Origin: Microthyrium microscopicum
Taxonomy: Eukaryota
Reading direction: 5' to 3'
Assembly: GCA_010405405.1 (NCBI GenBank)
Contig: MU004230.1
Span: 3,444,627 to 3,508,626 of the forward strand
Length of the DNA: 64,000 bases
Part shown: in pieces, positions 14,218 through 39,745 of the stretch
Layout: every line of letters begins with the position of its first letter
Position numbering within the stretch: the stretch's first letter is position 1
Program-made: the position numbers and the translations under genes
The notes under the pieces: model-generated
Told to the model about the DNA's origin: nothing
Databases searched by the model: none
Seen by the model: the letters and a program-made list of their open reading frames with translations, nothing else

Positions 14218-17022
14218 CTACGCTCGGAAGCCTTGAACAAAGCCATGCAACCGGTCAATAACCTGCGGCATCACCGCCGTCGCGCTCTCACTTATAAGCG
14301 CCTCGAAGCCCCTAATCGCCTCCTCCTCTGTCAACTCCAAATGGAAACGTTCTTGCACCTTGAGTACCGCCTTGTCCGGCTCCAGCCTAATATCGGGAAT
14401 ATTCGCCTCACTCATCAAGGCAAACAGATTCAATATCAGGTTTGCCGACTTGCGCAGGCTTGCGTATGCTGTGTAGCAGTACTGCTTGAATTGCGCATAG
14501 TACGCGTGCTGCGGACCGCCCATTCCTTGGACCATGGCTGGATCGAGCTTCATTAATGGCGCGAATGGTTTGGGATCTCGGCCAAGGATGTAGCCAAAGT
14601 CGGCGTGGAAGAAGTGACCAGAGGGACTGAGGAGGAGGTTGTCGGAGTGGCGGTCGCCCACGCCGAGGAGGTAGGTGATTACGCAGTAGCCTGCGCACGA
14701 TTTAATGTAAGTTTCCATGGCCTCCTTGCGGACGCCTAAGTCGGCCGTGTTATCGGGGTTGTGGTGTTTGAGATAGTTGAGAAGGGTTTTGTGTTTGGAG
14801 ATGATGGCAGAGAGGGAACTGGACGGTACGAATTGGACTGCGCCTGCATATGGCGCGGTTGCAAGAGTACGATAAGGCGAGAGCTTGAGATCGAGGTTCT
14901 CTTTGCGGAGTAGTCGGTCCATCAAGGTGATGATTTGGATTACAAGCTGATCTTGTCGTAAGTCATCGCCTGTTTTGAAGATGACCGGATAAGGTTGGCC
15001 TCCACTTGTTCTGAACGTGATAAAAAGGGGCTGAAGACTTGATTTGAACACGTTAGATTCTTCCGGGTAGCATCCCACAATATGGACTGTTGGATCCAAT
15101 GGTATAGGAAGTGGTGGTTGGAATGTAGTCAATTCATTTTTTGGGTCTCCAAGAAACTTCTTCAGGCGTTCAATTTTTCTAGTTCTGTCTCCAGCAGAGT
15201 TTCTGATATCTCGAGATATCTTGGAAAGCAGGGTGATGAGTTCACCCTGTCTCCGAAGGATTTTCCTTTGTTCTGGCCCATCGGGTCGCTTCATGAGCTC
15301 AACCATAAAATCATATTCAATTTGAGCAAACAATTGTCGTGCCCCTGCACCTTGTTGATCGGAAACATCATCGCATTCAACCATTAAATACCAATGCAGA
15401 TAGTTGCCTAGGATGAAGTTGTCTGCGGCTCGAGTGATGAGAAATCGAGCCAAAGAAGAGTCTTGCGCTTCAGAGACTTGATCTTGGTTCTCTTCCTGTG
15501 TATTAGATGGTCGTTCAAACTTTAAGGCTTGAACAAGTTGAAGTAGATACAGAAGCAGTTCATCGTCATCCGACTTTCGTAGCCTGTCTACAGCATAAGC
15601 GCGGACGTCTGGATTCTCAAAGCTGGGGCCAAGAAGTTCCAGAGCATCATCAACATCGATTGTGGTCCATTTGGATAACATAGAAACAGCTTGTCGTGAT
15701 TCACTTTGATCAGTCCAGGAAACCGATTTGACAAATTTCGTGAGTGCCTTCTTGTCGCGAGTGAGATGATGCCGAAATTTCCAGACCATGTCTTTTTCTT
15801 CATCGGTCAAGTCATGCAGTGGACCATACGACATGATAACATTCAGCTCATCTCGTATCTTGGCGTTGGGCTTCAGATCCCTATCTAATACTCCGGTCCT
15901 GCTACTTCGGACAAGCCTTCGGTGTTTGGACTCACATGGATTGTCTCGAACACCTACTTCCGGATCATATATTCGAATCAGTCTTCCTGGAGCCGGATGA
16001 CCCGATGGATCTATATCCAATTCTATCCCTGGTCCAAAAGATACTTCCGGAGGAGGTTTGAGACGAACATCAGATGCCGAATTCTGCATTGTCGAAATAG
16101 GTGGAGGTGGATATTCTCGATCAGTGAAAACAATGGGATGATCGAAGCGAGGAAATTCGATGTGAAGGTACCAAATCCCCTCATCTTCCACAGGTTTTGC
16201 GCTGCCATTTGTGTTATCACCATTGGAGGCACCGTTGGTAATTCGAGATTGAGCTTGACGTCGAAGCTGGGCCAATGTTTTCAAGCTATCTCTTTCCATT
16301 GCCTCGATTTTGCGGAACACTAACTGATCGAGCCATTTATTCTCAGGTATTTCGCCCATCTCATGTTTCTTCATCAGCCCCTCCAGTCTTTCCATTTCTG
16401 TCATCTCTCCATCGTTTTGTACTTCAAATGGAGTCGTTGACTGTGAGTAGCCATCTGCTTGCTTGTGCCGATGTATACGACACCGTATCCTACCTTTCCG
16501 GAGAGTATTGTCCTTGTCGAAAAGAGGAATAGTACTGCCGCCAAATGGAATTGAATGGAACTTTGTTTTAGGCCCACCAGCCGGATACAAATCCCAAACC
16601 GTGACAGCTAGCTGCGACGACAATGGTATCTCTGAGTAGGGTACAGGCAAAGATAGCCATTCGTTCCAGGTTCTAGCATTTTTGAAGTTCTTGTGAGAGG
16701 TTTCAGTGGGTAAAGTTAGGGGTTTACTGTCGGACCATAGTCGTACGGTGACATATAGCTCTGAATGCGTGCTGCCGATAAAGTTAGCAAGAACAATGAA
16801 GTGCTTCAATATTGGCATACATACCTCGTGTTTGAACCAACGTGTCGTAACTGAGGGTTTTCTAGCAGTACAGTCAATTCCGTAGGTTTTTGGGATCCCT
16901 CAAGATTGCTTCTAGAATTGGGTCAACATCAAAGACTCCATATGTAGTGAAAGGGGTACTAACATTTTGATATGAACGTCTTCTTTAAGATCAGATGAGC
17001 AGGCAAAGGAGAAAGGCTCCAT
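14218..17022 (-). CDS. VPS34: Class III phosphatidylinositol 3-kinase Vps34
   Basis: ATG 17022 (MEPFSFACSSDL) with two 5' introns. C2, helical and kinase domains with FKTGDDLRQDQL, LGVGDRHSDNLL and HADFGYILGRDPKP. Confidence 0.97.
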
Positions 17023-17434
17023 GATGTGCTAATATTCGAGGCCAGTAGGGCCTACGACACAAGCTTTGCCGTCTAATGTCATGTATAAAGCTGCTCGGCT
17101 ATCATTTCAAAACGCTTGCGCTCGAGCCTCGCGCAGTGAACGATAGAAGTGATAGGCAGCAAGTACAGTGTATGGTGGGGTGTATCTACGAAAAGTTGTC
17201 GCTCCGAACGTGATCTAGTGAAGAGTCTAGGTTCACTGATTGAGCGAGAGGGTGAAGCGGGTGGACTGGACTTTATACAGAAGCTGATATGCGAGGGTGA
17301 TGAGGATAGATTTGTTTCTTAACAAGTTGGAGAAATGTGTTGCAAGTTGCAACTCCACACGACTGAAGCTCCACTGTCCAGCAAGCTCCGAAGCTCTGGT
17401 GAACAGTCAGCAAGTCGTGATCCCCACCACCAAA

Positions 17435-17440
17435 ACGCGT
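17435..17440. promoter_or_regulatory. MCB element (ACGCGT) in the VPS34/NSE4 divergent promoter
   Basis: AAACGCGT about 350 bp upstream of the NSE4 ATG. MBF/MCB control of chromosome-maintenance genes is established in ascomycetes, but this is a single 6-mer. Confidence 0.3.
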
Positions 17441-17791
17441 GGTCACCTGATGCTTCGTGCTAAACCCACCCGGGCTTAGGATCTTGACACGCTCAGGGAC
17501 TCAGTGCTCTCTCATACTCTCAGGCCTCTAACACCTGCCCCTAGCACATTGCATTGATATTCGCAGAGACATCACCTTATCTTTTTGTCTTATTGTCTCG
17601 TCGAATGTTCCTGTCTCGCCCTCTTGTCCAATTTACGGGTACTCGCATATATCCAGCCAAGCCAGCTCGCGCTTGTCACTGATCGCAAACGCCGTCATAA
17701 CAGCCTTGCGACCTCAACTACAACCATCCATCGCGCCTGCAATCATCCGCCCAACAACCGGCAACGCTGCTTCACCACATCGCCCTATACA

Positions 17792-19295
17792 ATGGCCAGA
17801 ATACACCAACCTTCGTCTACACCAAGACGTCAATCTTCCCCCAATGATTCCCTTTTCCGTGGTAGAACCGCGACCGAAACACCTGCAAGAAATTCTCCAA
17901 GTGCGGCCTCCGATAAGGAAAATCGTCCAGCCATGAACAAGGGAAAGCAACGCGCTGTATCAGGACCTATGGCTCCTCCTCCGCGCGGTGGAGGGTTGCG
18001 CGATTCTACCGGCTCCAGAGGCTCCAAGCGTCGTCGAATCGAGCCCAGCCCAAGTCCCATGGAATACCAACCACTCACTCAGTTGATGACCCAATATCAA
18101 GACGTGCTCAGCAATGAGACACAAGATGAGAAAGAATATAATCCAAATCAGGATCTTGATCATCGTCGAGTGGTCAGACTGGGCTTGCGAACACTCGATA
18201 AAGAATTACATGGTATGTTTTTGCTGTTGTTGACAACCATGATCAGTGGCTAACATGTCGCTAGACGACCGTGACAGGTTCCTCAAAGAAAGTGCCAAAT
18301 CAATTGTGAAGCACATTCGAATCGCTGATCAATACATGGGCAATGTCCGACAGACCTCTGATGCCACAATCGATTCTCGATACCTTCTCAATGTTACTGA
18401 ACTCAGTAGCAAGAAATTGGCAAGCGAAGCATTTGGAAAAGGATCTAGAGGTGTAGAGGCAGATATGTTTCTAGCAGGTTGCATGGATTTCATGAAGAAC
18501 GGGGGATCTCTCGACGATGACGACGCGGACAACACCTTGATAACCACTCAACGGAGGCGTCGTGTCGTAGCAGATGATAGCGATGAGGAAGATGCTACAG
18601 AAGGCGATGGATTTGACTGGGACGTTGCTGGCGAATTGGCTTCATTCCCTGTCAACGGGCGCCCTACTTTTTCGAAGTACCTCCTTGGTCCTCTCGCTGT
18701 TGAAAAGAAAGTCAGAAATACTCAGCGTACAGCACGTCAACGAAAAGACCCAGTCACCGCAAATAAGCTTCCAGAGCGAATTGCAGCCGAGGATTTGGAG
18801 CGCAACGAGGCCTCCAATCTTACCAGTCTTTGCGCGTCAATACGTACACGCCTTAATTTGGTGAATACGAATGGCGCGCAACAAGCAAGTCAAGAAATGG
18901 AAGAATCTGTGGATTTGACAGACGACAAAGAGAAAGCCATCCTCACCAAGCATCATCTTTCCACAAATTGGGAAGTCTCCCTTTTTGAATTCGTTATCAA
19001 CCCAGACTCGTTCGCCCAGACAGTAGAGAACCTCTTCTACGTCAGCTTCTTAATCAAAGACGGACATGTCGATCTCAACTTTGATGACGATGGCTTGCCC
19101 ACAATTCGAGAGATTCCAGATAATCAGGGAGGCGAAGAGCGCGAAAGAGGATCGGGTCGACATCAAGCAATCTTCTCTCTGGACCATGAGACGTGGCGAA
19201 CACTCATCACGGCATTTGATATCAAACAACCATTGATTCATCATCGCGCAGAACAGAGCACCCCACTCGCAGGTGCCAAAGGCTGGTATGCGTAA
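17792..19295 (+). CDS. NSE4: SMC5/6 complex kleisin subunit Nse4
   Basis: ATG 17792, intron 18213-18264. Nse3-binding motif VRQTSDATIDSR, LLGPLAVEKK, and Nse4_C block LFEFVINPDSFAQTVENLFYVSFLIKDG..RHQAIFSLD. Confidence 0.93.
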
Positions 19296-19702
19296 TTCCT
19301 GGTGGCCAGGAAAGTATGAGCTTCTTTCTAATTGTCATTATCACCACTGAAGGGTATATCATATTGCTTTACGCAATGGCTGTTTTGTTTGAGGGAATTT
19401 TTGGAATGGGAGGCAGCACTGTGTTAATTAGTACTTTTTACTTCTCCATGATCGGACTCTGGGTATATGCGATGCCTCGGATTATAATACCCAATATACC
19501 CTTTTCCAGAATTCATTTATCGTCAGAATCGTAATATCATTCAAAGTCGCCGCACACATACTTTTGTAAGCTGTTGGAAAATGGTCAAAGCTTTGTTGGC
19601 TTTGCCCCTCGTTCTACAACATCAACAAAAAAACATTCGCAGCCTAGATCAACATCATCTCCAGCGTCCACCACACCTTGTTTCAGTCGCTCAGCAAAAA
19701 TC

Positions 19703-21415
19703 ATGTCCCTCTCCATACCCAGCGCTCCAAATGCGGGTCTCTTCAAACAAGGCTACACCAGCCATGATAGCGAAGATGCAGCAGTTGTGCGCAACATCGA
19801 CGCGTGCCGAACCATCGCAAGCTCCGTTCAAACCTCTCTAGGACCTTATGGCCGAAACAAGATCGTGATCAACCATCTACAAAAGATGATCCTTACCAGC
19901 GATGCGGCTACTATACTCAGAGAGCTTGAAGTCGTTCACCCCGCAGCGAAACTCATCGTTATGGCCAGTCAACAACAAGAGGCGGAAATGGGCGATGCGA
20001 CAAATATGGTCATTGTGTTGGCCGGCGAACTGTTGAAGAAAGCTGAGGAATTACTTCGACTGGGATTGAAGACAAGTGATATTGTTCAAGGTTATGAAAA
20101 AGCTCAGGATTATGCGCTCCAAGCACTCGAAGGTAGGTTCATGAGTCTCAGGTTTTGTAGCATGGACTGACACGTTGCAGAACTCACCATCGACAAAGTT
20201 GAGAACGCACAATCAGTAGAAGAGCTGAGCAAAGCTCTACGAACAGTCATATCTTCAAAACAGAACGGAAACGAAGATTTCCTAGCCGAACTTGTCGCAG
20301 AAGCAGTCCTTTCAGTCCTACCCAAAACCGCCTCAAATTTCAACGTCGACAACATCCGAGTAGTGAAAATTCTTGGTGGCTCCCTGCCACAAAGCAGAGT
20401 TATCAAGGGTATGGTTTTTGGCCGAGAACCGGATGGAAGTGTCAAGAAGGCGACCAAAGCAAAGGTCGGCGTGTTCACTTGCGCTATCGACATCAGTCAA
20501 ACAGAGACGAAAGGAACGGTTTTGTTACACAACGCAAAGGAAATGCTCAACTTCACGACCGGAGAAGAGCAACAAGTGGAAACGATGATCAAGGAGCTTC
20601 ACGACTCAGGTCTCCGAGTTGTTGTTGCTGGCTCTACCATCGGAGAGCTCGCCATGCACTACCTCAACCGCTATAACATCCTCGTCATCAAAGTCCTCTC
20701 CAAGTTCGAAATTCGTCGCCTTTGCCGAGTCGTTGGCGCAGCTCCTCTTGCTCGCTTAGGTGCACCGATGCCCGATGAAATGGGTATGATCGATGTGGTT
20801 GAGACACTCGAGATCGGTGGTGATCGTGTCACTGTCTTCCGTCAAGAGAACGAGGTAACGAGAACATCGACTATCGTTCTTCGTGGAGCTACTCAAAATT
20901 ATCTGGATGATGTTGAGAGAGCGATTGATGATGGTGTCAATGTCGTCAAGGCCATTACCAAAGATCCTCGCTTAGTTCCTGGAGCCGGTGCTACAGAAAT
21001 GGCGCTGATCGAACGAGTGGGCGCCTTTGGCGAGAAGACACCTGGACTGATGCAGTATTCTATCCGTAAGTATGCTGAGGCATTCGAGGTCATCCCACGA
21101 ACTCTAGCAGAATCTGCTGGTCTCGATGCCACTGAGGTTCTTTCGCGTTTATACAGCGCCCATGTGTTGAAGAAGGATGGCAAGCGAGACAAGTACTGGT
21201 GGTGTACAGGAGTTGATATTGAAAATCAAGAAGGAACGGGCATCATGGATGCTGAAGAGGAAGGCATATTGGATCTCATGATTGCAAAAAGCTGGGCTAT
21301 TAAACTCGCAACAGAGGCAGCCCGAACGATTCTCAGTGTCGATCAAATCATTGTTGCTCGACAAGCAGGTGGTCCAAAGCCGCCAGGACCAAATCCGAAC
21401 TGGGACGAGGATTAG
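19703..21415 (+). CDS. CCT8: T-complex protein 1 subunit theta (CCT chaperonin)
   Basis: ATG 19703, intron 20133-20180. Motifs TSLGPYGRNKIVINHLQK, EMGDATN, DDVERAIDDGVN and the C-terminus GGPKPPGPNPNWDED. Confidence 0.97.
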
Positions 21416-21565
21416 ATGTATACCCACCAAAATCGTAGTTATTTATATTGATAGACAATAATATGATGAACAAAAAAAAGCTTCATTCGTGCATTACAAT
21501 ATCTGGGTATAATTTGTCCTCTCGCGATCCATTTTGTCTAAAGTTCATTAGTCATTTCCACTCAA

Positions 21566-22367
21566 TCAGGTGAGTTTGTCCAATAGTCTTCGTCTCCGTC
21601 GATCCACTAATTCTTCCTGTACTTCATCTAGCGACGGCAGTCCCCAAGGAACGCCATCACCAGTGTCTCCTGGTATATCCTCCCAGCTCTTGTCATCATC
21701 TTTGCCGTTTGTCTGCTGCATCAGCGCCTTGAACGCCTCCTGCTCACGCTTAACCTCATATTCCAACAACGTCCCATCCTCCTCATCCAAATTATACCCA
21801 TAATAGCCCGCATCGACCCCCCTACTCAACTCCGCTCTCGTCGGTCCCTTATCCTCAACCTGCGGCTTCCCACTATTCATCGCCGCCTCAAATAACTCCT
21901 TCACGCCCGGTAACTCCCTCGCCCTACCAAAATACCGATACCCCTTCCCACCGCCCGGCACCTCCCGCCCATCCTCATCCAACACCCGTCCTCCTCTGCT
22001 ATAGTTTGGTCCTCCCAGCTCTCGTATCCTTAGTTCCCAGACGAACTTTTCGCGCATGAGCTTGTTGATCTCATCGTTGAGATCGCGCACTTGGTAGTCG
22101 CTGAGAGCTATGTCTTGGATTTTGGAGACTTTGCGGGAGATTTCTTTGAGGACTTGGCCGCGCCACTTTTCGCAGACGGGGATGGATTCGACGGAGGTTA
22201 TTAGTTTTGGGCGTGCGGTGGAGCCGAGGTCGATTATTCCTAGGTCGGCGGCTTGGGCGGCGCGGAAGCGGAAGAGCATTGATTGCGCTTTTTCAGAATT
22301 GCGCGCCTGTGATGGGTGTTAGTTGTTGGCATGGTGGTTGTGAGGCACTGGTGGGGGAGCTTACCAT
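21566..22367 (-). CDS. ISY1: Pre-mRNA splicing factor Isy1
   Basis: The first coding exon is ATG only (22365-22367), followed by intron 22307-22364. Translation MARNSEKAQSMLFRFR..RDLNDEINKLMREK..GYRYFGRARELPGVKELF. Confidence 0.95.
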
Positions 22368-24446
22368 GATGAAGAGTTTGTTTTGATGGTGCGGATTAAG
22401 TGCTGTTTATGTGATGGGGTAAGGGATGATAGCGCGAGTTGATTAATTAGAGAGTATGGTTTGTAGGTGGTGAGATGTAGATGGTGGTGTTGTTGTCTGT
22501 TAAGTTGTTTCACAAAATATTGATTTAAGCATAGTCCCGTTCAGGCTAGCGTGGTTTTTGGTCTAAAGATTTTGGTGCTCCAACTCCAGAGCTATCTCGA
22601 ACTCTAACTTCCTACTTCCTTTTCAGATTCTGCAATGTCTGGACCATGAATTGTTGCCGCGTATTATTTTATCTATGCGTGTACGATATCGAAGACCGGG
22701 TCTTGTTCTGAAACCGTGTATGGTCAGGTTGAAGTCTCGAAGCGCATCCTCCTTGTAAGCTCGACAATGATATGACTCTACTGATGAGTTGAACCTCTTC
22801 AGCGCTTTTTAGTTCTTTCAATTGCCCAAAACCTTGACTTGCCTTTGTCGGACCCCCTTTTCTTGGGCAGTAGAGTACTCTTGCACGTCGCTTTTGAGAT
22901 ATATGAGTGTCAACAGAGGGCCTCATCAGGTTGATCCTGTAAGGGGCACGAGTCCTTCGGGAATTGATGACGCGCCTCACAATATCACTGATCCATCAAT
23001 TAGAATGCTATCAAGCTCCAGCGGCTATTACAGCGGTCGTGGACCGAAATGCCTCGAAACAGAAAGCCAAATGTCTACCAGCCTCTATGATACTGTAGTA
23101 GATATGATATTGGTTTCGCAATTCAGATATTCTTCTCATACAACAGTTGCGAGAGGTACCGAACTATGCTAGCTTTGATACGCATTCAAAAGTGCACAAA
23201 CTACAAACCGGTACTGCTGCCCACGGAGTTACGCGGCAGCTTGCGTTGGCAGTCTGCCACGGATCAGCTTGCTTCTTCGCTCATGTTCATCACAAGCATG
23301 AACAACTGACAGAAGTTATTCTTCATTGCCAATTGAAAAGAATGGAAAAGCTCCAAGTACAAGCACCAAAGCACCTTCGCAATGGCCACTGGATCAAGTA
23401 TACGCCAAAGGTTGTGGGGGCTGTCTGCCAAATCCAGCGACAACAAGCTGGCCATCTTGCCGGTAAGCTCACTTTTACTCATCGCAATGCTCACCTATAC
23501 AGGAAATTTCTTAGAGCATTTACAAACTTGCGATTGGGCAGAATTCTGACATTAATATAGGTGACACCAAAACTGAACTGATCAGCCCTAGGAGCAGCCA
23601 TGCGTGGTTCGATCCCGAAATGAGATGCCAAAAGATCGACCAGAATTGGATTGGAGCAATTAGCCATTCAGAATCATTTCATTGGATGAACTCACTATGG
23701 GAATCCGTGGAGGACATGAATTAACCTAGCCTCATCATACCTCAATATGTACATTCAAGCCAAGGTGAGGGCTCCCCTGGGACTGGTTGCAGTCACTTGC
23801 CCCATCAATATACATCGAGTTACTTGGAGTTGTAAGTTGGTCCAGTGTCAAAGGTGATTCTAAACCCTATCGCTCTGCCATGTGGATCGCGCCAGACAAG
23901 ACAAATCTATATTGCTAACCACAAAGTCTCTATAACAGGCAAAACTTGAATCATAGAGTTCCAAATACATTAGAACCAAAGGAATCAAACAAAAATGACT
24001 TGTATAGAAGATATCTCAACTCTAAAGATACCGGTCAGGTACATTTTCAGGCACAGTCGCGAGCATTTGCCAAAGCTCTCTTGAACGCATCTAGATCGTG
24101 TCTATCTATTCATATCACGAGTACAATTGATTGTAGCATGCATCCCAAAGATCCCATCGCAACTTAGATTACTGTCGATTCACTTCAAGATTGAACCCTG
24201 ACATTTACAGGCCCTCTCTGATAACGCCGCGTCCTATATGAGCCGTTCCGATTCTGGGGGAGTCTGTTATTACTCTATCTTGCTTAAAAGCGCTTAAACC
24301 CCAGTTTCCCCCATCATCGCGTTCGGGTCTAAAGTAACATCTTCAACGTTCATTTTCGACCTCTCAGCAAGATACCAGTATCACTTGATTTCTCTACCAC
24401 ACTCATTGAACTTTAAGAGGAGCAAAACAATTGCAAACAATAAACG

Positions 24447-25598
24447 ATGAGACTCGAATCATTCCTACTGCCTCTCGCAGTGTCGGCTGCCGTCGTCGAG
24501 AGACAACTTGGTGGTGCCAAAGTCGCTGGTATCACAAAGCTCACGCCAGAAGTCAATCCAAAAGCCACTCGTCAGGTCACCAGATTTGGACCACTGACAG
24601 TGAAAGGAAAAGTAAGTTACCAATTCGGGCGCTTAAACATAAATTGACTTCGAAACAGTCCGCAGGTGGTGACAGTGGTCAACAAAACTGGATATGGACC
24701 ATTCGAGATGGGCTTTGCAGAAACTGCACAGTCCTCAAGGGTCACGTTGGACTTGCAAACGTTGATGGTACACCAGTCTCACCAAACAATGACGTTTATA
24801 TCCACCACATCCTGACATTCGACACAACCAAGAAACAAAAGAGCTTCTTGTCAGGTTGTGCCTCAGGCGCAGCTGGCCTGGGAGGCGCCAAGTTCATTGG
24901 ATCAGGAGAGGATAACAACAATGTTGCTGTGTGGTACACTGCTCGGGATGGTAAATCCAACAACGGATTCCACATTGGAAGCTCAGACAGCTTTATGATG
25001 AACATTGATCTTGTCAGCTATCATGCAAATACCAAGCAGATTTATCTTACGATGGATATGGAATATCTCCCAGGTCTACAAGGAGCTGACGCTCGGTATG
25101 TATCTCGACCCTGGATGGAGTGTCTTGGGCTAACAATCATTTAGCGAAACCCTCCTGAGTGTGACCGGATGCGGTGTTCCATCGATCAAAATTTCACAAA
25201 CTGGACCCACCAACACAACCAGTGGCAAATATACATTCACTGAAGACGGTACCATTCTCGGAGCCAAGGGTCACTTGCACGTACGTTGTTCGTCAACTTC
25301 TACCATTTCTATCTGCTAACAGAAACAGGCCGGTGGAGAGAAGATGGTTATGTACATCAACGGCAAGTTTGCATGCGAGAGCAAGGCTATGTATGGAGGC
25401 GCGAAAGGTGAAAATGCCATTGACGAAATGTCCCTCTGCACAACCAGCGGTATCAAGGTCAAGAAAGGCGATGTTATGACCATGACCGCCGAGTATGATG
25501 TTTCCAAGCACCCGGTTCGCCATGAGTCTCATGGAATGGGTGCCGGCATGGCAGATATCATGGGCATGTTTGACCTTATTTTCGCAGCGCATTCTTAA
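24447..25598 (+). CDS. Secreted 335-aa protein, putative PHM/DBH-like (copper type II monooxygenase fold)
   Basis: Exons 24447-24611, 24659-25095, 25145-25280 and 25329-25598, all GT-AG. Signal peptide; motifs VYIHHIL, GAKGHLHAGG, VKKGDVMTMTAEY and DIMGMF. The gene model is well supported; the functional call is inference. Confidence 0.8.
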
Positions 25599-26005
25599 AC
25601 TGCTCAACTGAGCTGATCGACAACGTTTGAAAAATCGTACCAATCCAGCATAAGGACTTACTCTGTAAATATTATACCATTTGTGCTTTGCAACGTCCTG
25701 ACTATCTCTCGTGATACGTAAGCCAGTGAACAGTCTCTTCCTGAATATAAGGCTGAGATTACCTTGCCATGAAACATATCCACCATGAAGCACAAGCCAG
25801 ATCCTACCAAAGTAGCGGCTTATAGGCCTGCGACATAGCTTCCTATCCATTTCAGCTTTAACCAAATATCATAGATGCTGATGTGGGAACCTAAAAAGCA
25901 TTCCTATCATCATTTGACAAGGCTGAGAGCACGCTAACCATATATGGAAGGTACATGCGCAACGTGGTCAAAGACCCAAAGGCAGTCGCGACTCGCGAGC
26001 CAGTA

Positions 26006-26484: not shown

Positions 26485-28380
26485 ATGGCTCCTCCGGTCA
26501 AAGCATCGGTAGTCTATAAAAAGGTGGATGGAATTTTATCCATCACCAAAGATAGACAGCTTGTTCTTTTCACGCCAAATGTTCCACCATCATCTCCCCC
26601 AACCCTGAAAATCCATACTTCTGAGATCCGAAGTAAGCATGCATGTAGAGATGCATATTGAATTCTTGCTGATTGCTCAGATCTACAGCAAACCCCCGCT
26701 ACTAAAGCCAAGGTCTCTGTCAAAATCGTCGTTCAACCGCCTGGTGGGCCAGCTCCCGAAAACTATGTCTTCGTATTCTCATCCACCACCGCTGCTCGCG
26801 CTGAGGCCGAGGCAATAATGGATCCTCTCAAAGAGGTGTACGCCAACAATCTCAAATCAACAACTTCGGCATCAACGCCAAATGCCCCAGTAGGCTCATC
26901 TCCGGCTGCCTCTGGTCCACTGGCAATGGCACAAGTCACGGCATCAAAGACTCAGGATGTACTATCTGACGCAACGCTACTCTCGGATTTTAGTCTCCAG
27001 AAGAGTTTGCTTGATAAGAATGCTCAACTTCATCAGCGTTTCAATGAAGCTTTCAAAAAGCTCAAGAACGAGGCTGACGCAATTCCACTGGACCAGTTTT
27101 CAAAGCAATTCTGGTCGCCTAGAATTCATCTTCTCCGTGCCCATGCTATGGAGCGTTCACAGACCCAAGGAACCTACAATGTGTTTTCTGCGGTCAAACC
27201 ACAGCGAAACAATGAGGGTGTTGTCACTTTAAAACTTAGCAAGGAACAGATACAGTTAATATTCGCCCAACATCCGCTAGTCCGGAGAATATACGACGAC
27301 TTAGTGCCAAATAGAAAGAAAGAGGGTGAATTCTGGTCTGATTTCTTCGTAAGCAGACTCTTTCGGAAACTAAAGGGCGAGAAGTTCACCGCCTCGGACG
27401 TTGCGGCAATACCTGATCTGGATAAATACCTGGATTATAACGAAGATGCTGATACTGGCCCTCTGTTTGCCGTCCCAAACATTCCACGCTTTCTGGATGT
27501 CGAAGGAAACGAGCAAGATCATCCAGAGACATACGGCAATGACGACGAAACGCAACGCCCAGAGAAAGACCAAGGGTTGTTGAGAAAACTTAACACCATG
27601 AGTGGGAAAATGATGGCAAATGTAGCTCCTTTCGATAGAAGCAATCTGCATGGACCTGTTGGAATGGACGAAAAGACGTTTGACGAACTCCAACTCAAAG
27701 ATCTTCAAGGGGCTGAAGTGGATAATCGAATCTCACTCAACATCAAGGAGACACATGGACTATTCGCTGGTTCGTCAGCTCGGAATGGGCAATCATCAAC
27801 GGTCAGTTCCGCTGCAGCAATGTCAGACTTCAAGCGACAGCTTCTTGAACCTATCGGAACACCACTGGAGTTCAATGACACGTCCAAGCGCCAGGCAGCG
27901 AGCACATCAAAAGGCTTAATGAAAAGTATCAAGCAGCGAAGGAGTCTGTTATCCATCATATCCGATGCCGATACAGGACTTTCTCGCCCAACGATTGACT
28001 CCGCAATCATGACCCATAACACCACCATCGAATTCTTACATTACTTTTGGGACGTGTATCTGTCTGGAGATGAAGGTCGAACCGGAGAGCTTGCAAAACT
28101 TGTGGAGACCCTTCACAAATCCCTTGAGCGAATAGAGGCTGTAGCAACAGAGGCAGACACAGAGCTTCAGCAAAAGCAAGAGGATCAGCGTTTGAAGGAT
28201 CAGGAATTCTTCAAAAGAACCGGTAAACGTATAAGAGCACAAAATGATGCGTCAGGTGGCGGCAAAGCTCTACATGACCTGCTGAAATCTACTGAAATGG
28301 CAGTCAAATATGCGGAAACTCAGTATCAACGAACGTACCAAGAACAGGTTGCTCAGAATGGAGCACAAGTTCAAACTTAA
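26485..28380 (+). CDS. TFB1: TFIIH core subunit Tfb1/p62 (PH + BSD domains)
   Basis: ATG 26485 (MAPPVKASVVYKKVDG), intron 26633-26680. Motifs NLQQTPATKAKV, FWSPRIHLLRAHA, IFAQHPLV..EFWSDFFVSRLF and EFLHYFW. Confidence 0.92.
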
Positions 28381-29848
28381 TAGATCAGAGAAGGGACTCT
28401 GTAATTGATGAAATCATTTGATCACTTACCATTCTCCAGATTTTAGTACGTCTTCTCACTTGCCATACTGAATGAACCTACAAAGGTTGTCGAAGGTAAG
28501 AGGCGACAGGAAAGGTAGTTTTTACTAGAACTCTGAACTCAAACGTTGTTGATCTTGAAGATCTTACGATTATGTTCTAGACCTTGGGCCTGGACTTTGG
28601 CATGCAGCCTTACCTTATGCACAATCTGGTTGGCCACTTGGTGTTTTTGCGCACTTAATGAACATGGCACCTATCCCCAAAATATTTCTCCGTTCCTCCG
28701 CTCTGCTCATACTATAAATGCTTCATGAAGCTTTCATTTCGAATGCGTGATAGTGCAATCGCCAAAAAAAGAACAAGAAACGCAGGAATGCTTTGGCAAA
28801 GTCTACAGGGCGATTCCGAGAAAGTTCGGAGGATGAGTTGGCGGCAATCGCGGAACTACCTCACTTTCTGCGTTGTGCAAACGCTTCCATTTCCATCAAT
28901 TTACGCTCTCATATCAAAATGTTATACCGTCAAATCAATAATGACAATCGCCAAGATGAGCCACGTCAATATTGTAGCCCATGTCCCAATAAAGATCCAT
29001 TTTACCTGCAAGCCATGATCCAGTTTTGCACTACTGAGATGCCTCAGATGCTGGTCTTTGTATGACGCAACTATCCTACATACTATATAAATGGAGTGGC
29101 CTGATGTTTCTATGCCTTGACGTCCCCACAGTCTTGTCACTAGGCATATCTTATTGGTGCGGCAGAAACAACTCTAGACGTTATAAGCAGACATTGATGC
29201 GAATCCAGGTATGTATGAATGGTTCTTGAGTAATTCCTATAAGTCGCAGCTATGCACCAAGTTACTCTGTTCCGGTTCCGCCCATGATCCGTCTAGTCCT
29301 CTCGAAGACGTCCGTCGTAATTCACCCCTTGTAGTACGAGGGTATGCAAATAGCAACAGAGCATCTCACGCATCTCAAAATGTTGACAGCGATCGAACTT
29401 CAAGGCAATACTTGGCTGGAAAGTGAAAGAATATTTGGCTAATATATGCTCCTAGGTCTCCAAACAGTCCGAACTGGACGACTGTACCATCATGGTCAGG
29501 ATGAAAATGCTATGCATGATATAATATACTTGGACAAAGTCAACAAGCTACAGGATATCGTAAAAGGTCATTGATCTCTAGCAAGAGCATTAGGATAATG
29601 AAATCGTTCTCTCGGAGCCCACGGCTTGAACCGGGGCTGGTGATATTCGGCCCCGTAAGGCATCTTCTTTGATGGCTGCATCTGGCGCCAGGTATCATCT
29701 TGATGTTTGTTGCTGATGAAATAACTTCTGTTGCTTCCAAGGAATATTGACCAACACTGGACTTCGTGGAGTCATTTGAATCCATTGGCATCTTTTGAAC
29801 CGGTTACGGCCAGGGTAAGTCAATCCTCCAGGACTGCAAATTTGCTCA

Positions 29849-30489
29849 TCATCGATACAGTTCTCGAATAGGATCATACATGGATGTTCGAGGCGAAGTA
29901 GGATCACTCCCTATCGAAGGAAGAGTCAGCAGCGAGGTCTTTATCACCATGCCAGCTTGGTAAGCCTTACCGCCCAGGAATTGTGGTGGTGCATGGCTAA
30001 CGTCCTGGAGGCCAGCATTGGTAGGATAATATCCTGATCCGCGATGGCTTCGATTGCGATTTCGCTCATCACGGTATCGAAAGACATGCCAGAGGCACCA
30101 ACGAATGACCCAGTTGTCCCACTGGGAGCCGTCTTGAAAGTTGCCCTTGGCATACTGCTCGCGGGTGGTGGGTGAGGATAAAGCGTAGATCTCGCAGACC
30201 GCTTTGTACTGTGCTGTTTCCATGATCATATTTGACGAAAATGGAGGCTTCAGGCCTGGTGTTGACTGTGCTTGGGGCGTCAAATTTTCGAAAACGCACA
30301 TTCTTTCTCGAGCAGCGGCAGCCTCGTCCTGTTACCAAAATCAATTTGCGTCCAGCCTAAAGCACGATAAGAATAACATACCATCATGTCTCGATAAACT
30401 CTTCTATCTTGGGAGTTGTCCTCGCACAACCGCATGTGTTCTAGAAACTCCTTTTTGGACTTGCTTGGTGATAGTCGACTGAGTGTCAT
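29849..30489 (-). CDS. Conserved fungal hypothetical protein
   Basis: ATG 30489; introns 30329-30381 and 29911-29970 with canonical signals. Spliced product KEFLEHMRL..YRDMM|DEAAAARER..DNWVIRWCLWHVFRYRDERN..MYDPIRELYR. Confidence 0.7.
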
Positions 30490-33400
30490 GGTGGATGGCT
30501 CTCCAAATGATATGATTATATCCAACAGACTTGGAACCATCACAGTTTTGAAGATATACTGAGACTGTTTTTGGAGGTTTATCGTCGGTATGTCGATCGA
30601 GAGAAGGCGATTGTTGTTCAAGCTGACCATCATAGGCTAATCAACCACGTCATGTGATTACTGGATATAAATGATGGGACGATGGGGAATGATTAGGCAC
30701 AGGAATGGTGCTGTATAAGAGGGGCGCTCTTGGATCGACTGCAAGAGCCGAAGGACTATCCTATGAGAGACAACAAAGTGGTGCTTCCAAGGCGCCGGAG
30801 TTCAAGGGCGGAGCGGGTTGGTCGGATGCTGAGGATCGCTTCCCGAAGAGAGAATGCAGTCGAAGTGGGCCACTCTCTAATAAGAGGATTACTGTACGGT
30901 CGTTGGATGCCCAATGTCGAAACTGCTTTGGTAATGCAGGGTGTCGCTCTTAGCCCCCTTTCAGTGCCCGAGTGCTTGAAATGGGTGGTCTGATGATCAA
31001 TACGAACAAAAGATGTGTCCAAGAGCAACAAGATTGAGAATTGAGTCGATAGACAGAGGGGACAAGAAGAAGAAACGGCTAGGCTATGTCGGTCTTATTA
31101 TCAAAGAATATGAAAAGAGAAAAGAATCATTGGTGAAGCTTCTGGGAAAGACAGAGGATATGCAGGATCGGAAATCCGTCAGCACTTCGCCTAGCAATAA
31201 CCCTCGGATCAGGTACATCAAGCCAGTGGCATATCCAACCACACGATCCTCGGCTGCCGTCAGTGAAATATCTCCGGTAAGAGTGGCTCGAGTGCATACC
31301 CTCGACATCATCCTGAATGAGAAGCGCCTCAAGACGCTAAGGAGGGTGTCAATTGGGGGTATCCACTTGGCCCAATGTAAAATTGACGACAATCGGTGTC
31401 GAAGTCTTGGGAGGATATGGTGGCTAGAGAAAGCTAAGGAGGTTTTGGAGACTATGCAGACATGCCGAAGCTCTTTTCCACACATCTACGAGAAATGGCT
31501 TGAGCCTTGACAGCACGCACTATACAACAGTATACCGTGGGGTGTATCGCTAGTCTTCATACCAGGAGCTGTATTATGACGCATACCAGCACCCAGAGCC
31601 TGATGCTGGCCAGACTACTCTAAAGCTGGAGGAGTAGAAGAGAGTTCGATCCGCAAGTGTATTGGAATCATTTGTTATGGCCCTGCAGGGTTGGGCAGCA
31701 TCGGCACACCGTTTCCGGTAGTAGGAAGTCTTGGTGCAGGAACCGTATAGTAGGTGATGATACGAATTAGAGGTGAAATTTCTGTAGCGGCGTAGACTGG
31801 TGAGGGAAAAATGGTGGCTTGCAGCCAGCCTGGAAACCCAAACCCAAACAGAAGCAAGGTTGGCACTCTGCATGTTCAATTTGACTTTTGAGTTATCAGA
31901 CCACCCATTAATTGAGACCAGACCTGAGAGACGTGACAATCGACATGGACATCTCAACCTTCCGTCTGTCGTGAAGTCGAGAAAGGCGGTTTCTGGATAT
32001 CGAGTTGAAAAAGGTATGATTGACAGGGCGCAAAAGCAGGCTCCAGTAGTATTGGAGAAACAGCCTGCATTACGCAGAAGGCAGCGGTTGCGTGCATAAA
32101 CTCTGGTAAGCTCGAGGGCAGAGTTCAACGAAAGGAACTTTTACTATCTCGTTCACACCGGCGCAATTCGAAGCAGTGAGGTTGGCGAAAGCCGGGATCT
32201 TCAGCTGCGATTGACTGGCGACTGGGCCTAGAACAACGCCGCCGATGAGAGCTTGTAAGGCAAGATCGTGTCTGCGCTGGCTGCTGCAAGGCGTCGCCTT
32301 ACTGGGAAATCACTCAAATCCAATAATCTTAGACCCTGCTCGACTGTCCAAATAAGGATTTCATTGTTGATCTGACACTTTGAAGGTTCGTTCTTCGAGA
32401 GTCGAGACTGACAGCAGAAGGCTAGAGGTGATGGAAATAGGTCAGCGACCACAAATACAATGATCTAGTCGTCGATAGACTCAGAGAACATCTGCGTGTA
32501 GGCTGAGTTGCAGTCCTGGAGCAAACAGATGATACTGATTTACCGCATAACATTGCTCACTTGGGTATTGCTACCTCCTGAAGCAGTGGAGAAAAACCAA
32601 CCAAATTCAGAATATCGCGCTAGTGCATCTTGTCCACGAGGTCCCGGGATGAGCTCGTGTATGCCGCTTCTCCACTATGCTAAAATTTAGCCATTATTTG
32701 GTTACGAATCCAGCAAAACCTTGAATCTCTCGCCGTCGATTCGAGTTTAGTGTGCCATATGGCAATGGAACTGACGCAATGCAAGGCAACGCTTCGTACT
32801 TTTTCTCGCTTGCTGCAACAAAAGACTGGGCAAGAGGAGAGACATACATAGTACCTTTAGCACTTGGCGGTTCGTGTGCTTGAAGTAGGATGTGATACCC
32901 TTCCAGTATCCAGGTAGCCCCAGTCCTGTCCATAGCAGAGCCAATGACTTACCTTGCTCGTCGGTTAAAGCTCGACAATCGCCAAATCGAGGCTAAAGTC
33001 TAGTCCCGCTTGGGCTGCTGCTCAGTCGGAAGTCCCAACCCGAGCTGATGGATCGTGGAAACGGCCCGCTCAAACCCAGCAAAAACGTGGTTCTCACATC
33101 TTTTGGTAAATCGTAATTGTCCTTGTTCGCTATCATTGGTTACACCTTGCTCACCACACTCCGCAAGGTTTGCTTTGGAGATCTTTCCTTGATCTCCAAT
33201 TGCAAAACGTAAAGTCAAGTAAGCGAAGATCAAGTCGGGACACGGCGACGCCGAAAGTGTGGGCTCTCTTAAGATTCAAGCTAAACAGCCCTGCGAGTCA
33301 AAGCCAACATAATATGCCAACCACACTCATGCTCAACCTAGTTCGTGGTTGAAAAATGGCCTGATTCCAGCTCCTCACGTCCAAGTCCGCAGGCTTGCCG

Positions 33401-34281
33401 CCAAAGGTTGGACGGTATCGGAGTCTACCGAGCCACAAAGTCTTGACTGTTCACCACAGTGAGCCAGTGACCACCCACATTCGTCCGTCCGATAAAGCTC
33501 GGAGGTTTTCTGTTCTTCTGGGCATATCGATTCATCGAATAATCGAACGAGGGCCAGCATGCTTGCTTTGATAGTTGCAGGCCGGCTGCACACTAGCTGC
33601 CGCGTTGGGACCAAATTCTCTGATTCGGGACACCAACACGCGAGCGACAAGGAAGCACCTGCAAGCTGATGGGGTCACAGCAGCTGGGTTCAACGACAGA
33701 AGCACAGTGCAGGTATCAAACCTTCTTTTGTTCTGCCAGTTACCTTGTGATGGGCGTTGTCTTTTACAGTCGAATGCGTCAAAAGGGGCAAGAAACGTGG
33801 AATGCAATGCAGGTGCCACATGGGTAATGCTTTTTCTTGTGGCTTGAATCCAATCGAAAGGTTTCCACGTGGCATGTGGAAAATAGAAATACAAAAGTAT
33901 CCGCGATCGTTTCGATGGTCTGAAGCAATGCGCATCAAGCTACTCTACTTTAGGAGCGCTGCGTGATGCTACCGAGATGTCTCTTCCCTTATTCTTTGTT
34001 GATATCCATATTACCAGACACAATCGTCCGAGTGCATTAATGAGCGGTGAGAAGTTCAATATCTAGCTGTGATACACGATAGTATCAGTGGGTTTTGTTT
34101 GGTCTCTCTAGATTACAAGTCTGGCGTGCTTGAACATTGGGACCAGATATTTCATACAATGGAAGTCTTCCACTCTGACTCCTCTTAATTCGATCTATCG
34201 TTTTTTGAATAGTAATAAAATTTGTAAGATATCTAAAGAGGAGCAGCGATTTGTGTATTTTGAAAGGGGGTTGGTTTTACT

Positions 34282-35943
34282 TCACACCCTCCCAGTCATG
34301 TCTCTCCAGAACTGCCGCCAACCATAACCTTTCCTCGCAATATCTTCGTCATGCACTTTTGCCGGTGTCTTGTCAAAATTGCTTAGCAAACCACCTGGTG
34401 GTCCCACCCCGATTGTGGTAGGGTATGGCGAGGCCACCACAAGCGCGCGTTGGCGTATCTCTGCGGGCAAAAATGGGGCCACCTCTGCATAACAAGCCTT
34501 AAGCTCGCGTTCTAGACTAAAATAGGGTTTTTGAGCTAGCTGTGGAGCTATAAGGTTGTACGATCGAGTGATTGAGTTGAGGTTTGCAATAGAGTGTTTG
34601 TGAAAGGAGTGCTCTGTTGCTTCCCAAGCAGTATCTCGAAAGGGTAGACGTCGACGCATGCTGGGGCGTCGCGTGGGTTCTTGTTCCACTGCGCCTGAGT
34701 CTTCGCTAATGCTGCTTCTTGACTTGCTAGCTGAATGCGAGGGCTCGAGTTGACCGGAAAGAGATATCTGAGAGAGATGAGCGTTTTGAGATATTGGTTC
34801 CAGCGTTTCTGGTTGGAGGGGCTCTTTATCGGCCGGTTGAAGGAGATTATCTTGCTCTGCCAATGCATACTCATGTGCTCTTTGCACCTTCTCATCCAGC
34901 GAACCACCCACGGCCGCGATCATTCTCGCCGCATGTCGTTTCCAATCATTGCGCATACGGAGTCTAAACACACGCACCGCAGTCGCCAACTCCTGCTGCT
35001 TTTCAATCCAAGGTGGCACAATATCCTGCTTCTTGATCATTTTGTTCATCAGATACTCCGTCGTATCAATAAATGGACTACTCGCATTATAATCACGCTC
35101 CAGTTCCTTTCCCCGCGGCAAGTTCTTGAATTTCCCCCGTGCAATTGCTTCGTCAATCCTACGATTCGCCAGTGCAGCCAGCCCGCCCAATGTCGCTGGT
35201 AATTCCCGCGCACTAGGCTCAAAGCGCGCCTTCATCTCGTCCGACAGCTGCTGCCGCTCTTTCTGGCTCAAGCCTGCCTCGCGTGCCTGAGCGTACTGCG
35301 ACGAGCGTTCCTTTGCACTTGCGATGCGGGCGCCAGCTGATGGTTTCCGGCGCACCCCTACTAGACCCTGAGGCGCGATCCGTGGTTCCGGGGCAGATGA
35401 ATGGCTGCTCTTGAGTGGTTTGTGCGCATCATTTAGCATGCGTAGGGCTGTATCGGCCAATGCTTCATTGCCAGTCCATGGCTGGGCGCTGGCGAGATCA
35501 CGCGTCCCATGACCAGCGCTGCTGCGAAGGTTGGCCTCGGCAAAGGCTTGAGGATGGCTGGTCTGCAGGTTGTTGGCGAGAGCAATGCGTGCGGCGAGGC
35601 GGTCGCGTAGCTCGGCGGAAAAGCTGGCATCATCTAGGTTGGTGGTGCCCGATTCCAGTGCTTCTTCGGTAAGTTGCTCCAGGCGAGCACTCATGGCCCC
35701 CTGAGATGGCTCGGAAGAGGCATCTTCAGCCTGCTGTGATACTTTGACAGTCTCTGGAATAACCTGAGCGCTCTGTGATGGCTGGGCAGACGTGTTCCGA
35801 ACTTGTTGAGGTATCTCAAATGTTTTTGGGCTGTTATCGCGAGCTGGTGCGTTGTTGGATAATCGTCGACGACATTGTGCCGCCAACGAGAATCGACCAG
35901 GGCCGGGATTGACTAGTCGTACTGTAACTCTTGCTATTGGCAT
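34282..35943 (-). CDS. DUF1992 / DNAJC28 conserved-domain protein, probably mitochondrial
   Basis: Single long ORF with ATG 35943 and an Arg-rich presequence-like N-terminus. Conserved block ANRRIDEAIARGKFKNLPRGK..TEYLMNKMIKKQDIVPPWIEKQ. Confidence 0.85.
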   Translation of the reverse strand: MPIARVTVRLVNPGPGRFSLAAQCRRRLSNNAPARDNSPKTFEIPQQVRNTSAQPSQSAQVIPETVKVSQQAEDASSEPSQGAMSARLEQLTEEALESGTTNLDDASFSAELRDRLAARIALANNLQTSHPQAFAEANLRSSAGHGTRDLASAQPWTGNEALADTALRMLNDAHKPLKSSHSSAPEPRIAPQGLVGVRRKPSAGARIASAKERSSQYAQAREAGLSQKERQQLSDEMKARFEPSARELPATLGGLAALANRRIDEAIARGKFKNLPRGKELERDYNASSPFIDTTEYLMNKMIKKQDIVPPWIEKQQELATAVRVFRLRMRNDWKRHAARMIAAVGGSLDEKVQRAHEYALAEQDNLLQPADKEPLQPETLEPISQNAHLSQISLSGQLEPSHSASKSRSSISEDSGAVEQEPTRRPSMRRRLPFRDTAWEATEHSFHKHSIANLNSITRSYNLIAPQLAQKPYFSLERELKACYAEVAPFLPAEIRQRALVVASPYPTTIGVGPPGGLLSNFDKTPAKVHDEDIARKGYGWRQFWRDMTGRV

Positions 35944-36477
35944 ATAGATGGAATTACGAGACTCAATAGAGCAGAGTATCACCAGTGACTGAATATTGTG
36001 AATGGAATAGGTTTATGAGGAGTGGAGTTGAAGAAGGCTTGGCATATTCGTAGATCGATCTTCCCGACCCTTCCGCTGCAGATCTTCACGTGGCAAAACG
36101 TGGAGAATTAAGGGACATTCCAACATGAGAAGGCACGAACGTGCGAACGACTAACACTTAAAAATAGTGTTCCAGGATATGATATAGCATAATATATAGT
36201 AATGATAACATTGAATGAGGGTCGTGATCAACTAGGACACGGAAATACCGGGGAGAGACTTTATTCACAATTAATACTCCATTATGATTGCAAGAAAACA
36301 CGAATTGTTATAGGCTAAAATGTACACTTGGAGAACCGTATTGAACAAAAACAGCATTTGATGAGTTACAATAGTAAGCCAATGAACCGGCAACACCAAC
36401 CTCTGCACGCCCACCGATTATCTTGATGCACAAGTCATTTGTATTCATCTCCAGAGTCAATCATCTCTTCGTCCTTT

Positions 36478-39400: not shown

Positions 39401-39745
39401 CGTGAACGCTTTGAGGGTCTTGTTTCCATGCCATGTACATCTCATCAATGTAATTGGCAGTGTTACCTTGGAGGAAGGAATCGTTTGGATCCTAGAGCTT
39501 TCGTTAGCGCGATAAAGAGCTTCGGGCTTTGTTAATATCGCCATTGACGCGGAACATACAACACTCGAAACTTCGCTTTTCGTTGTGTCATCGGAGGTAG
39601 TAGCATAACCTCGTTGCCATCTCGAGGCGCATTGTATCGAAGATCGCTGGATAGCGCTATTAAAGGTTGTGAAGACAGGAGCTCGGGGCGAGCGAACGCC
39701 CCGTCGCAGCTGGTTACCGCATCGTCTCAGGGACGCAGCAAGCAT
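36478..39745 (-). CDS. KGD1: 2-oxoglutarate dehydrogenase E1 component, mitochondrial
   Basis: ATG 39745 with presequence; introns 39492-39559 and 37020-37072. Motifs [43 protein letters not shown] and [15 protein letters not shown]. Confidence 0.98.

Follow-up and report, generated by a model that had tools for sequence, protein, structure and literature searches.

A four-exon gene on the plus strand at 24447-25598 of a 64,000-nucleotide stretch of the Microthyrium microscopicum genome (contig MU004230.1; the whole stretch is referred to as the window) is predicted to code for a secreted protein of about 335 amino acids. We give a probability of roughly 0.5 to the proposal that this protein is a secreted copper-dependent oxygenase or oxidase, built on the fold of the animal copper enzymes peptidylglycine alpha-hydroxylating monooxygenase (PHM), which amidates peptide hormones, and dopamine beta-hydroxylase (DBH), which makes noradrenaline, and having an altered H half-site. 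The proposal is carried by two structure models with the PHM/DBH fold and by the conservation, in a large family of fungal Nod19-like proteins, of residues placed on the metal ligands of PHM. Copper binding is likely, because a His-x-His (HxH) plus Met ligand set is combined with a Met/His-rich loop, with copper-linked relatives and with the regulation described for plant Nod19, and oxygenase chemistry is a reasonable inference.

Predicted fold and domain arrangement

The family and fold tests were made with single exons of the gene or with the homologue P0003 as a stand-in for the spliced protein. P0003 is identical to the window protein at 276 of the 334 exon-coded residues (~83 %; 49/54 in exon 1), and the two have a common numbering. 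An AlphaFold2 model of P0003, based on a 28-sequence alignment, was all-beta with two domains, with a predicted local distance difference test score (pLDDT) of 80 and a predicted template modelling score (pTM) of 0.81. An independent AlphaFold2 model of the relative P0083, which is 33 % identical to P0003, was obtained from a 75-sequence alignment with pLDDT 83 and pTM 0.78.

When the P0003 model was searched against PDB with Foldseek, DBH was the top match and was accompanied by 27 PHM entries (E 1.8e-7 to 3.4e-5, probability 1.0). With VIA-align the same model matched 6ala_C with Z 16.3 (root-mean-square deviation, rmsd, 3.7 A; 240 aligned residues), 4zel_A with 15.8, 5wja_D with 15.3 and other PHM structures with 13.1-14.6. 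The corresponding values for the P0083 model were 16.7 for 6ala_C (rmsd 3.4 A, 231 aligned residues), 16.3 for 4zel_A, 15.4 for 5wja_D, 13.7-14.5 for ordinary PHM structures and 13.1-13.5 for 8dsj, 8dsl and 8dsn. In a comparison of the P0003 model with all 48,161 representatives, PHM (14.4 and 14.2), DBH chain B (11.5) and PNGase F (8.3) were the only structures with Z of at least 8. PNGase F was the next best fold for both models, at 8.3 for P0003 and 8.7 for P0083. For the predicted structures the assignment to the PHM/DBH-type two-domain beta-sandwich is thus secure. The initial annotation, made from the DNA letters alone, had read the gene as PHM/DBH-like from its motifs, and the two models, Foldseek and VIA-align all returned the two-domain beta-sandwich that this implies.

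The models also resembled some conformers of PHM and DBH more than others. According to the structural passages of PMC12164859, the coppers are 11 A apart in 1PHM-type structures, 8DSJ and the Q272E variant are fully open with 14 A, and 6ALA, the H108A variant of PHM with citrate, is a closed conformer with a domain arrangement nearly that of the closed half of the DBH dimer. For both models the closed class scored highest, followed by the 11 A and then the 14 A class, with about 2-3 Z units from end to end, and both thus favoured a closed arrangement over two sites set well apart. Of the two DBH chains, the P0003 model agreed much more closely with A (Z 15.8) than with B (11.5), and from the likeness to 6ALA described in PMC12164859 we infer that chain A of 4zel is the closed conformer.

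For PHM, the catalytic core of PAM (PDB 1PHM, 1SDW and 6ALA), the likeness of the models extends to Z 14.2-16.7 over 231-247 aligned residues, whereas the sequence identity to the Nod19 models is only 9-16 % and the models are nearer to the closed 6ALA than to the 11 A or 14 A forms. With DBH (4ZEL) the catalytic core is in common (chain A, Z 15.8 and 16.3, rmsd 3.1-3.5 A, 240-246 residues), but the window protein lacks both a DOMON and a dimerisation domain and is similar to one DBH conformer only. In fold, the similarity to PNGase F reached just Z 8.3-8.7, compared to about 16 for PHM.

Putative metal-ligand residues

Conservation was counted in a mafft alignment of 93 full-length relatives, a 73-sequence subset of which had a mean column identity of 15 %. 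The ligands of PHM are numbered as in PMC12164859, i.e. H107, H108 and H172 for the H site (CuH) and H242, H244 and M314 for the M site (CuM). All positions given for the window refer to the plus strand.

The contiguous pair His104-His105 (VYIHHIL, 24803-24808), located on model strand 101-110, is the putative counterpart of the CuH pair H107/H108 and was present in all 93 relatives. In the second domain, His244-Leu-His246 (25272-25280, within the GHLH at 25269-25280) would correspond to H242/H244 of the CuM site, with both His in 89/93. The third CuM ligand, M314, has its putative counterpart in Met324 (DIMGM, 25560-25562), which lies 78 residues past His246. Of the relatives, 77 extend to this column and 75 of these have Met; over all 93 the column holds 75 Met, 2 Leu and 16 gaps, the gaps belonging to C-termini that are truncated or mis-modelled. 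The placement of Met324, and of Met410 of P0083, on M314 follows from the end anchor of the VIA alignments, in which residue 334 of the P0003 model and residue 420 of P0083 were both aligned to PHM 324, provided that the last strand is ungapped. The complete set of His-His, HxH and Met was found in 75/93 relatives.

The spacings are also close to those of PHM, with 139 residues compared to 134 between His-His and HxH, and 78 compared to 70 between HxH and Met, the excess in the latter being an inserted loop. In PHM, R240 lies two residues before the HxH and, according to PMC12164859, interacts with the carboxylate of the substrate; the residue with this spacing here, at position 242, is basic in 65/93 relatives (Lys 44, Arg 21) and is Lys242 in the window protein. 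As in PHM, the protein is predicted to enter the secretory pathway and to have disulfides. Judged by sequence comparison, the motif pattern is far beyond chance. The motifs listed in the initial annotation (signal peptide, His-His, HxH and a Met 78 residues past the HxH) were all recovered at their places after splicing, and its four His and the Met were kept in the homologues at the frequencies given above.

The main departure from PHM concerns the third CuH ligand. Asp172 (MMNID, 25007-25009) lies 67 residues after the His-His and 72 before the HxH, compared to 64 and 70 for PHM H172, and by these offsets occupies the place of that His. The residue at this position was Asp in 50, Glu in 36, Gln in 3, Val in 2 and Met in 2 of the 93 relatives; as placed by offset, it is therefore acidic in 86/93 and never His, in agreement with the Asp which had been noted there by eye. 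The flanking offsets (+3 at the His-His and -2 at the HxH) confine a third CuH His to residues 169-174, on model strand 167-175. Further conserved carboxylates are found near by in the sequence, Asp/Glu188 in 85/93 and Glu190 in 87/93. According to the alignment, the H half-site is altered in the whole family to His-His plus a carboxylate.

His160 (GFHIG, 24971-24973) is a possible substitute for the third ligand of the H half-site; the position is His in 42/93 and Tyr in 31/93. Residues 160, 172 and 247 (codon 247 at 25329-25331), which belong to two domains, co-vary, with His-Asp-Ala, the type of the window protein, in 28-35 sequences and Tyr-Glu-Asp in 21-35. This co-variation may reflect a contact across the closed domain interface or mere subfamily descent. 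Besides the putative ligands and Lys/Arg242, the positions Asn257, Tyr268, Tyr302 and Asp303 were conserved, in relatives down to about 25-30 % identity.

His/Met-rich loop

The insertion relative to PHM is a loop of residues 305-323 (25503-25559), placed just before Met324 and containing His307, His311, His314, Met316 and Met320. The His/Met-rich stretch itself, KHPVRHESHGMGAGMADI, corresponds to 25506-25559. In the P0003 model the pLDDT was below 50 at residues 314-320, consistent with a flexible or poorly ordered loop. Over the 93 relatives Met and His made up 277 of 1651 loop residues (16.8 %) compared to 5.6 % in the core, and at least three Met or His were present in 60/93. His307 is conserved in 81/93 and accounts for 81 of the 168 loop His, but without its column the enrichment was still about 12.5 %. 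The extra loop reported in the initial annotation is thus real, although it is common to the whole family and is no peculiarity of this gene. Extracytoplasmic proteins that handle Cu(I) typically have Met/His-rich segments.

Long low-complexity N-terminal tails with Met/His motifs were observed in the relatives P0036, P0101, P0083, P0073, P0091 and P0115, the Met-Pro-Ala-Gly-His-x-His unit occurring four to five times in that of P0036. No such tail is present in the window protein. Overall the N-terminal tails were not enriched in Met and His (5.0 % compared to 5.6 %), while 6 of the 15 tails of at least 40 residues carried at least 10 % Met and His, some with striking repeats.

Family membership and described Nod19 proteins

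Exon 4 alone matched the Pfam family SURNod19 (PF07712) with E 0.0034 and 16.7 bits, the curated cut-off being 25 bits. Among the homologues, P0003 scored 25.2 bits, P0005 30.1, P0008 23.1 and P0012 21.4, and of 48 divergent relatives 22 reached 25 bits, 18 matched lower at E<=0.01 and 8 were without a match. None of these matches spanned the whole 377-position model; they covered only positions ~223-375, the C-terminal domain, leaving the first two thirds unmatched. By these profile scores the window protein is a borderline SURNod19 member, tied to the plant-defined family via its C-terminal domain alone. The SURNod19 resemblance suspected from the motifs is in this way borne out by exon 4 and by the homologues. 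A common grouping of SURNod19 and PHM-like folds may already exist in Pfam.

A search with exon 2 gave 28 homologues of 287-353 amino acids (E 3e-72 to 4e-37), 16 of which had a precomputed PF07712 label. The profile of these 28 matched 1203 cluster representatives (50 % identity) at E<=0.001, and 536 at E<=1e-10, among 1.84 billion. The named matches were all fungal hypothetical proteins, from Venturia inaequalis, M. microscopicum and Helicocarpus griseus; homologue searches with a family alignment and with the C-terminal region of P0033 returned five named matches, all fungal, and no protein named as plant or bacterial by its source. A V. inaequalis protein, P0179, matched the family profile strongly (E 2e-115). 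One of the 48 divergent relatives, P0083, matched the PHM-type domain PF03712 (Cu2_monoox_C) weakly, with E 0.0058 and 16.6 bits, under the cut-off of 23. In the Atlas look-up of the relative P0037, one cluster of structural neighbours is bacterial SURNod19, of whose members 82 % have PF07712 and 38 % have PF00127; this is to be taken as a lead only. No PF00127 (Copper-bind) domain was found by Pfam scan in the four exons or in close homologues.

The literature search, which did not extend to subscription papers and database clan notes, gave no published function for Nod19 proteins and no link of Nod19 to PHM or DBH; the initial annotation, which knew of no described fungal function, agrees with this search. 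A connection to copper is that of bean Nod19, described in PMC3882225 as a validated miR398b target which falls in copper deficiency and rises in copper excess together with Cu/Zn-SOD. The Arabidopsis NOD19 is presented in PMC10326430 as a membrane-associated potyvirus host factor with an elusive specific function; it has a C-terminal hydrophobic helix, whereas the fungal protein stops at the last domain strand. In common with plant Nod19 (MtN19) the window protein has a signal peptide and the C-terminal third of the Pfam model. Soybean Nod19 genes are connected with early nodulation in PMC13355928, in a text in which the words 'copper' and 'monooxygenase' were not met. A further described group is the Nod19 family of V. 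inaequalis, which is fungal, secreted and PF07712-annotated like the protein studied here, and whose members are effector candidates of early apple infection (PMC9632046). The passages on this family in PMC9632046 treat it as non-enzymatic and guess at a role in oxidative stress, drawing no link to copper or PHM.

Proposed mechanism and alternative explanations

In the mechanism that we propose, the C-terminal domain would bind copper via His244, His246 and Met324, a ligand set of the oxygen-activating CuM type, and the N-terminal domain would provide, with His104-His105, the carboxylate of Asp172 and in this subfamily perhaps His160, a modified form of the electron-delivering CuH half-site. 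The copper centre, supplied by an external reductant, would activate O2 (or H2O2) and oxidise a C-H bond of an extracellular substrate. The signal peptide and the two domains account for all 335 residues, and no fused electron-transfer domain is present. The Met/His loop before Met324 might capture or guide copper, or act as a lid, and given the closed arrangement in both models the two half-sites may work as one coupled centre.

It is possible, though we regard it as rather doubtful, that the fungal Nod19 clade as a whole consists of secreted copper oxygenases with a permanently closed, coupled inter-domain centre and an H half-site of His-His plus carboxylate, acting on an extracellular substrate such as peptide termini or wall or host surface polymers and thereby aiding colonisation. 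If this were true, nature would offer in the closed-centre Nod19 proteins a parallel to the 'closed, binuclear' state that is disputed for PHM and DBH. The closed predicted arrangement bears on the debate over this reaction state, as outlined in PMC12164859.

Several observations weigh against an oxygenase or oxidase of this type. One concerns the H half-site, in which no His was found at 172 or 174 in any of the 93 relatives, nor among the six most frequent residues of positions 169-171 and 173. The only other frequent His of the N-terminal domain is His160, which is limited to 42/93. According to the mutant data in PMC12164859, H172A PHM retains copper but has almost all of its activity gone. 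The equivalence of residues with PHM was derived from offsets and end anchors rather than from a residue-by-residue superposition, and the closed arrangement, even if reproduced in two distant family members, is a property of AlphaFold2 models. Sequence methods did not lead to PHM: neither PF01082 nor PF03712 was matched at E<=10 by P0003, P0005, P0008, P0012 or the four exons, and PDB sequence and profile searches with P0003 and two family alignments gave chance-level matches with no PHM among them. The genomic surroundings are equally silent. The neighbouring genes (14218-22318 and 26485-39491) are all of housekeeping type, i.e. a Vps34-type PI3-kinase, Nse4, a TCP-1 chaperonin subunit, Isy1, TFIIH p62, a DNAJC28-like protein and 2-oxoglutarate dehydrogenase E1, so that no gene cluster surrounds the Nod19-like gene and the neighbours give no functional clue. 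The Mac1-type copper-response motif, with the consensus TTTGCKCR, did not occur in the 2 kb upstream, and its 10 occurrences in the window compare to 12 expected. In the literature searched, no test of metal, reductant or substrate was found for any Nod19 protein, and the function of Nod19 is termed unknown or elusive in PMC9632046 and PMC10326430.

As the loss of H172 nearly abolishes catalysis in PHM, the fungal proteins would need another arrangement for electron delivery, perhaps the closed coupled centre or the His or Tyr at position 160, or would have another metal at this site, or would not perform PHM-type catalysis at all. The strongest alternative, in our estimate an unlikely one, is that the proteins handle copper without being enzymes, and capture, buffer or pass Cu(I)/Cu(II) outside the cell or at the wall, for uptake or protection. 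The family-wide Met/His enrichment of loop 305-323 would suit such a role, as would the Met/His-rich N-terminal tails of some relatives, e.g. the Met-Pro-Ala-Gly-His-Ser-His repeats of P0036, the loss of a canonical CuH His that cripples PHM when missing (PMC12164859), and the plant Nod19 transcripts that track copper supply (PMC3882225). However, a full enzyme-like ligand set and the conserved non-ligand positions were kept down to about 25-30 % identity, and a two-domain scaffold of 300 residues is large for a mere binder. The lack of overall enrichment in the tails and of a copper-response motif in the promoter also argue against a pure copper-handling function.

A second and clearly less probable explanation is that the fold has been kept but used with another metal and another chemistry. 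The His-His pair with Asp or Glu would then form a 2-His-1-carboxylate-type site for Fe, Mn or Zn, in a dioxygenase, an oxidase or a hydrolase. The acidic residue at 172 in 86/93 and the carboxylates at 188 and 190 (85/93 and 87/93) are consistent with this, and the co-variation of 160, 172 and 247 suggests a remodelled site at the domain interface, but that co-variation may just follow subfamily descent. The Met-rich loop points instead to Cu(I). A combination of HxH with Met is characteristic of copper sites and not of iron or zinc sites. The same combination makes up the CuM ligand set of PHM, as listed in PMC12164859. The least probable explanation, to which we give very little weight, is a non-catalytic secreted effector or carbohydrate binder that keeps an old fold and uses the double beta-sandwich as a PNGase F-like or lectin-like binding module: the place of fungal Nod19 among the non-enzymatic early-infection effector candidates of V. 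inaequalis (PMC9632046), a relative with a source label starting 'Concanavalin A-like l...' and PNGase F as the next best fold (Z 8.3-8.7) speak for it, but the PHM/DBH matches lie 6-8 Z units over PNGase F and the invariant positions coincide exactly with the PHM metal ligands and not with surface patches.

With regard to the copper-dependent oxygenase or oxidase preferred here, what appears to be new relative to the PHM/DBH kind, as read from the alignments and models, is that the H site has a carboxylate across the clade, that a Met/His loop is present and that the predicted state is closed. The window protein differs from PHM in having Asp, and the family Asp or Glu, at the place of H172, and a Met/His-rich loop inserted before the Met ligand. 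The clade-wide change from His to carboxylate at the electron-transfer half-site is, together with the closed predicted arrangement, a point of interest of fungal Nod19. For this gene itself the result is modest: the initial annotation had taken it for a candidate novel system, but it is a typical representative, standing alone, of a very large and already catalogued family. Nod19 (MtN19) has been catalogued in plants since 1996 and more recently in the secretomes of fungi. The PHM/DBH reading provides this anonymous stress and effector family with a testable enzyme hypothesis, and as the family is large (1203 clusters) and has members that are expressed in early infection by Venturia (PMC9632046), a defined activity would reach widely.

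Gene structure, expression and secretion

Exon 1 (24447-24611, codons 1-55) contains the start, the signal-peptide-like N-terminus, a conserved Arg19-Gln20 and the first beta strands of the N-terminal domain. Exon 2 (24659-25095, codons 56-200 plus 2 nucleotides) codes for most of the N-terminal, CuH-like beta-sandwich, including Cys75, Cys78 and Cys122 and the sequon at Asn77. Exon 3 (25145-25280, codons 201-246) covers the inter-domain linker, Cys210, the sequon at Asn224 and the first C-domain strands up to GHLH, and exon 4 (25329-25598, codons 247-335 plus the stop at 25596-25598) the remaining CuM-like C-terminal domain with Cys262 and Cys283. The three introns all have GT..AG borders and measure 47 nucleotides (intron 1, 24612-24658), 49 nucleotides (intron 2, 25096-25144) and 48 nucleotides (intron 3, 25281-25328).

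All three introns were absent from a 2474-nucleotide contig of the public run X1, which matched with zero mismatches and crossed the introns at the exact joints, i.e. 24611->24659 for intron 1, 25095/25145 for intron 2 (given as 25094->25144, 'cut +1') and 25280/25329 for intron 3. The RNA label of run X1 is a guess only; the contig was taken as a transcript because the exact removal of three GT..AG introns is what one obtains from mRNA, and it is very probable that the gene is expressed with the splicing given here. The homologues run uninterrupted over every junction, as with GHLHAGG at intron 3.

The N-terminus, MRLESFLLPLAVSAAVV, is hydrophobic, with a mean Kyte-Doolittle value of 2.32 over 10 residues. 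Six Cys occupy three pairs of positions that are conserved in the family (75/78, 122/210 and 262/283), and there are two N-glycosylation sequons. From these features the product is predicted to be secreted and disulfide-bonded, and it is probably N-glycosylated. Directly behind the hydrophobic N-terminus lies Arg19-Gln20 (24501-24506). An Arg-Gln pair was observed in the first 45 residues of 53 of the 89 Met-starting relatives, in 20 of these with Lys or Arg in front, and may represent a Kex2-like pro-peptide cleavage site, after which Gln would be N-terminal.

The gene has no second copy in the 64-kb window, where tblastn with P0003 and P0083 returned this gene alone. A profile search of the genome contigs with the family alignment found no relative, and tblastn against plasmids gave no match.

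A soil metatranscriptome run, X2, contained one contig of 193 nucleotides that covers the 5' end of the gene (24355-24547) with a single mismatch, a share too small for a reading of habitat or expression. The spliced X1 contig reaches about 1.2 kb further to the left, to window positions of about 23086-24446 (record positions 1261-2474), into a stretch of about 2 kb at 22.4-24.4 kb without a recognisable gene. A long 5' leader might explain this leftward part, as might co-assembly with an upstream transcript. On the other side, just past the stop codon, X1 contigs had CT..AC joints at 25702-25762 and 25708-25762, corresponding to a minus-strand GT..AG intron, which points to a spliced transcript, convergent or antisense and so far unannotated, in the interval from the Nod19-like gene to the start of the TFIIH p62 gene at 26485.

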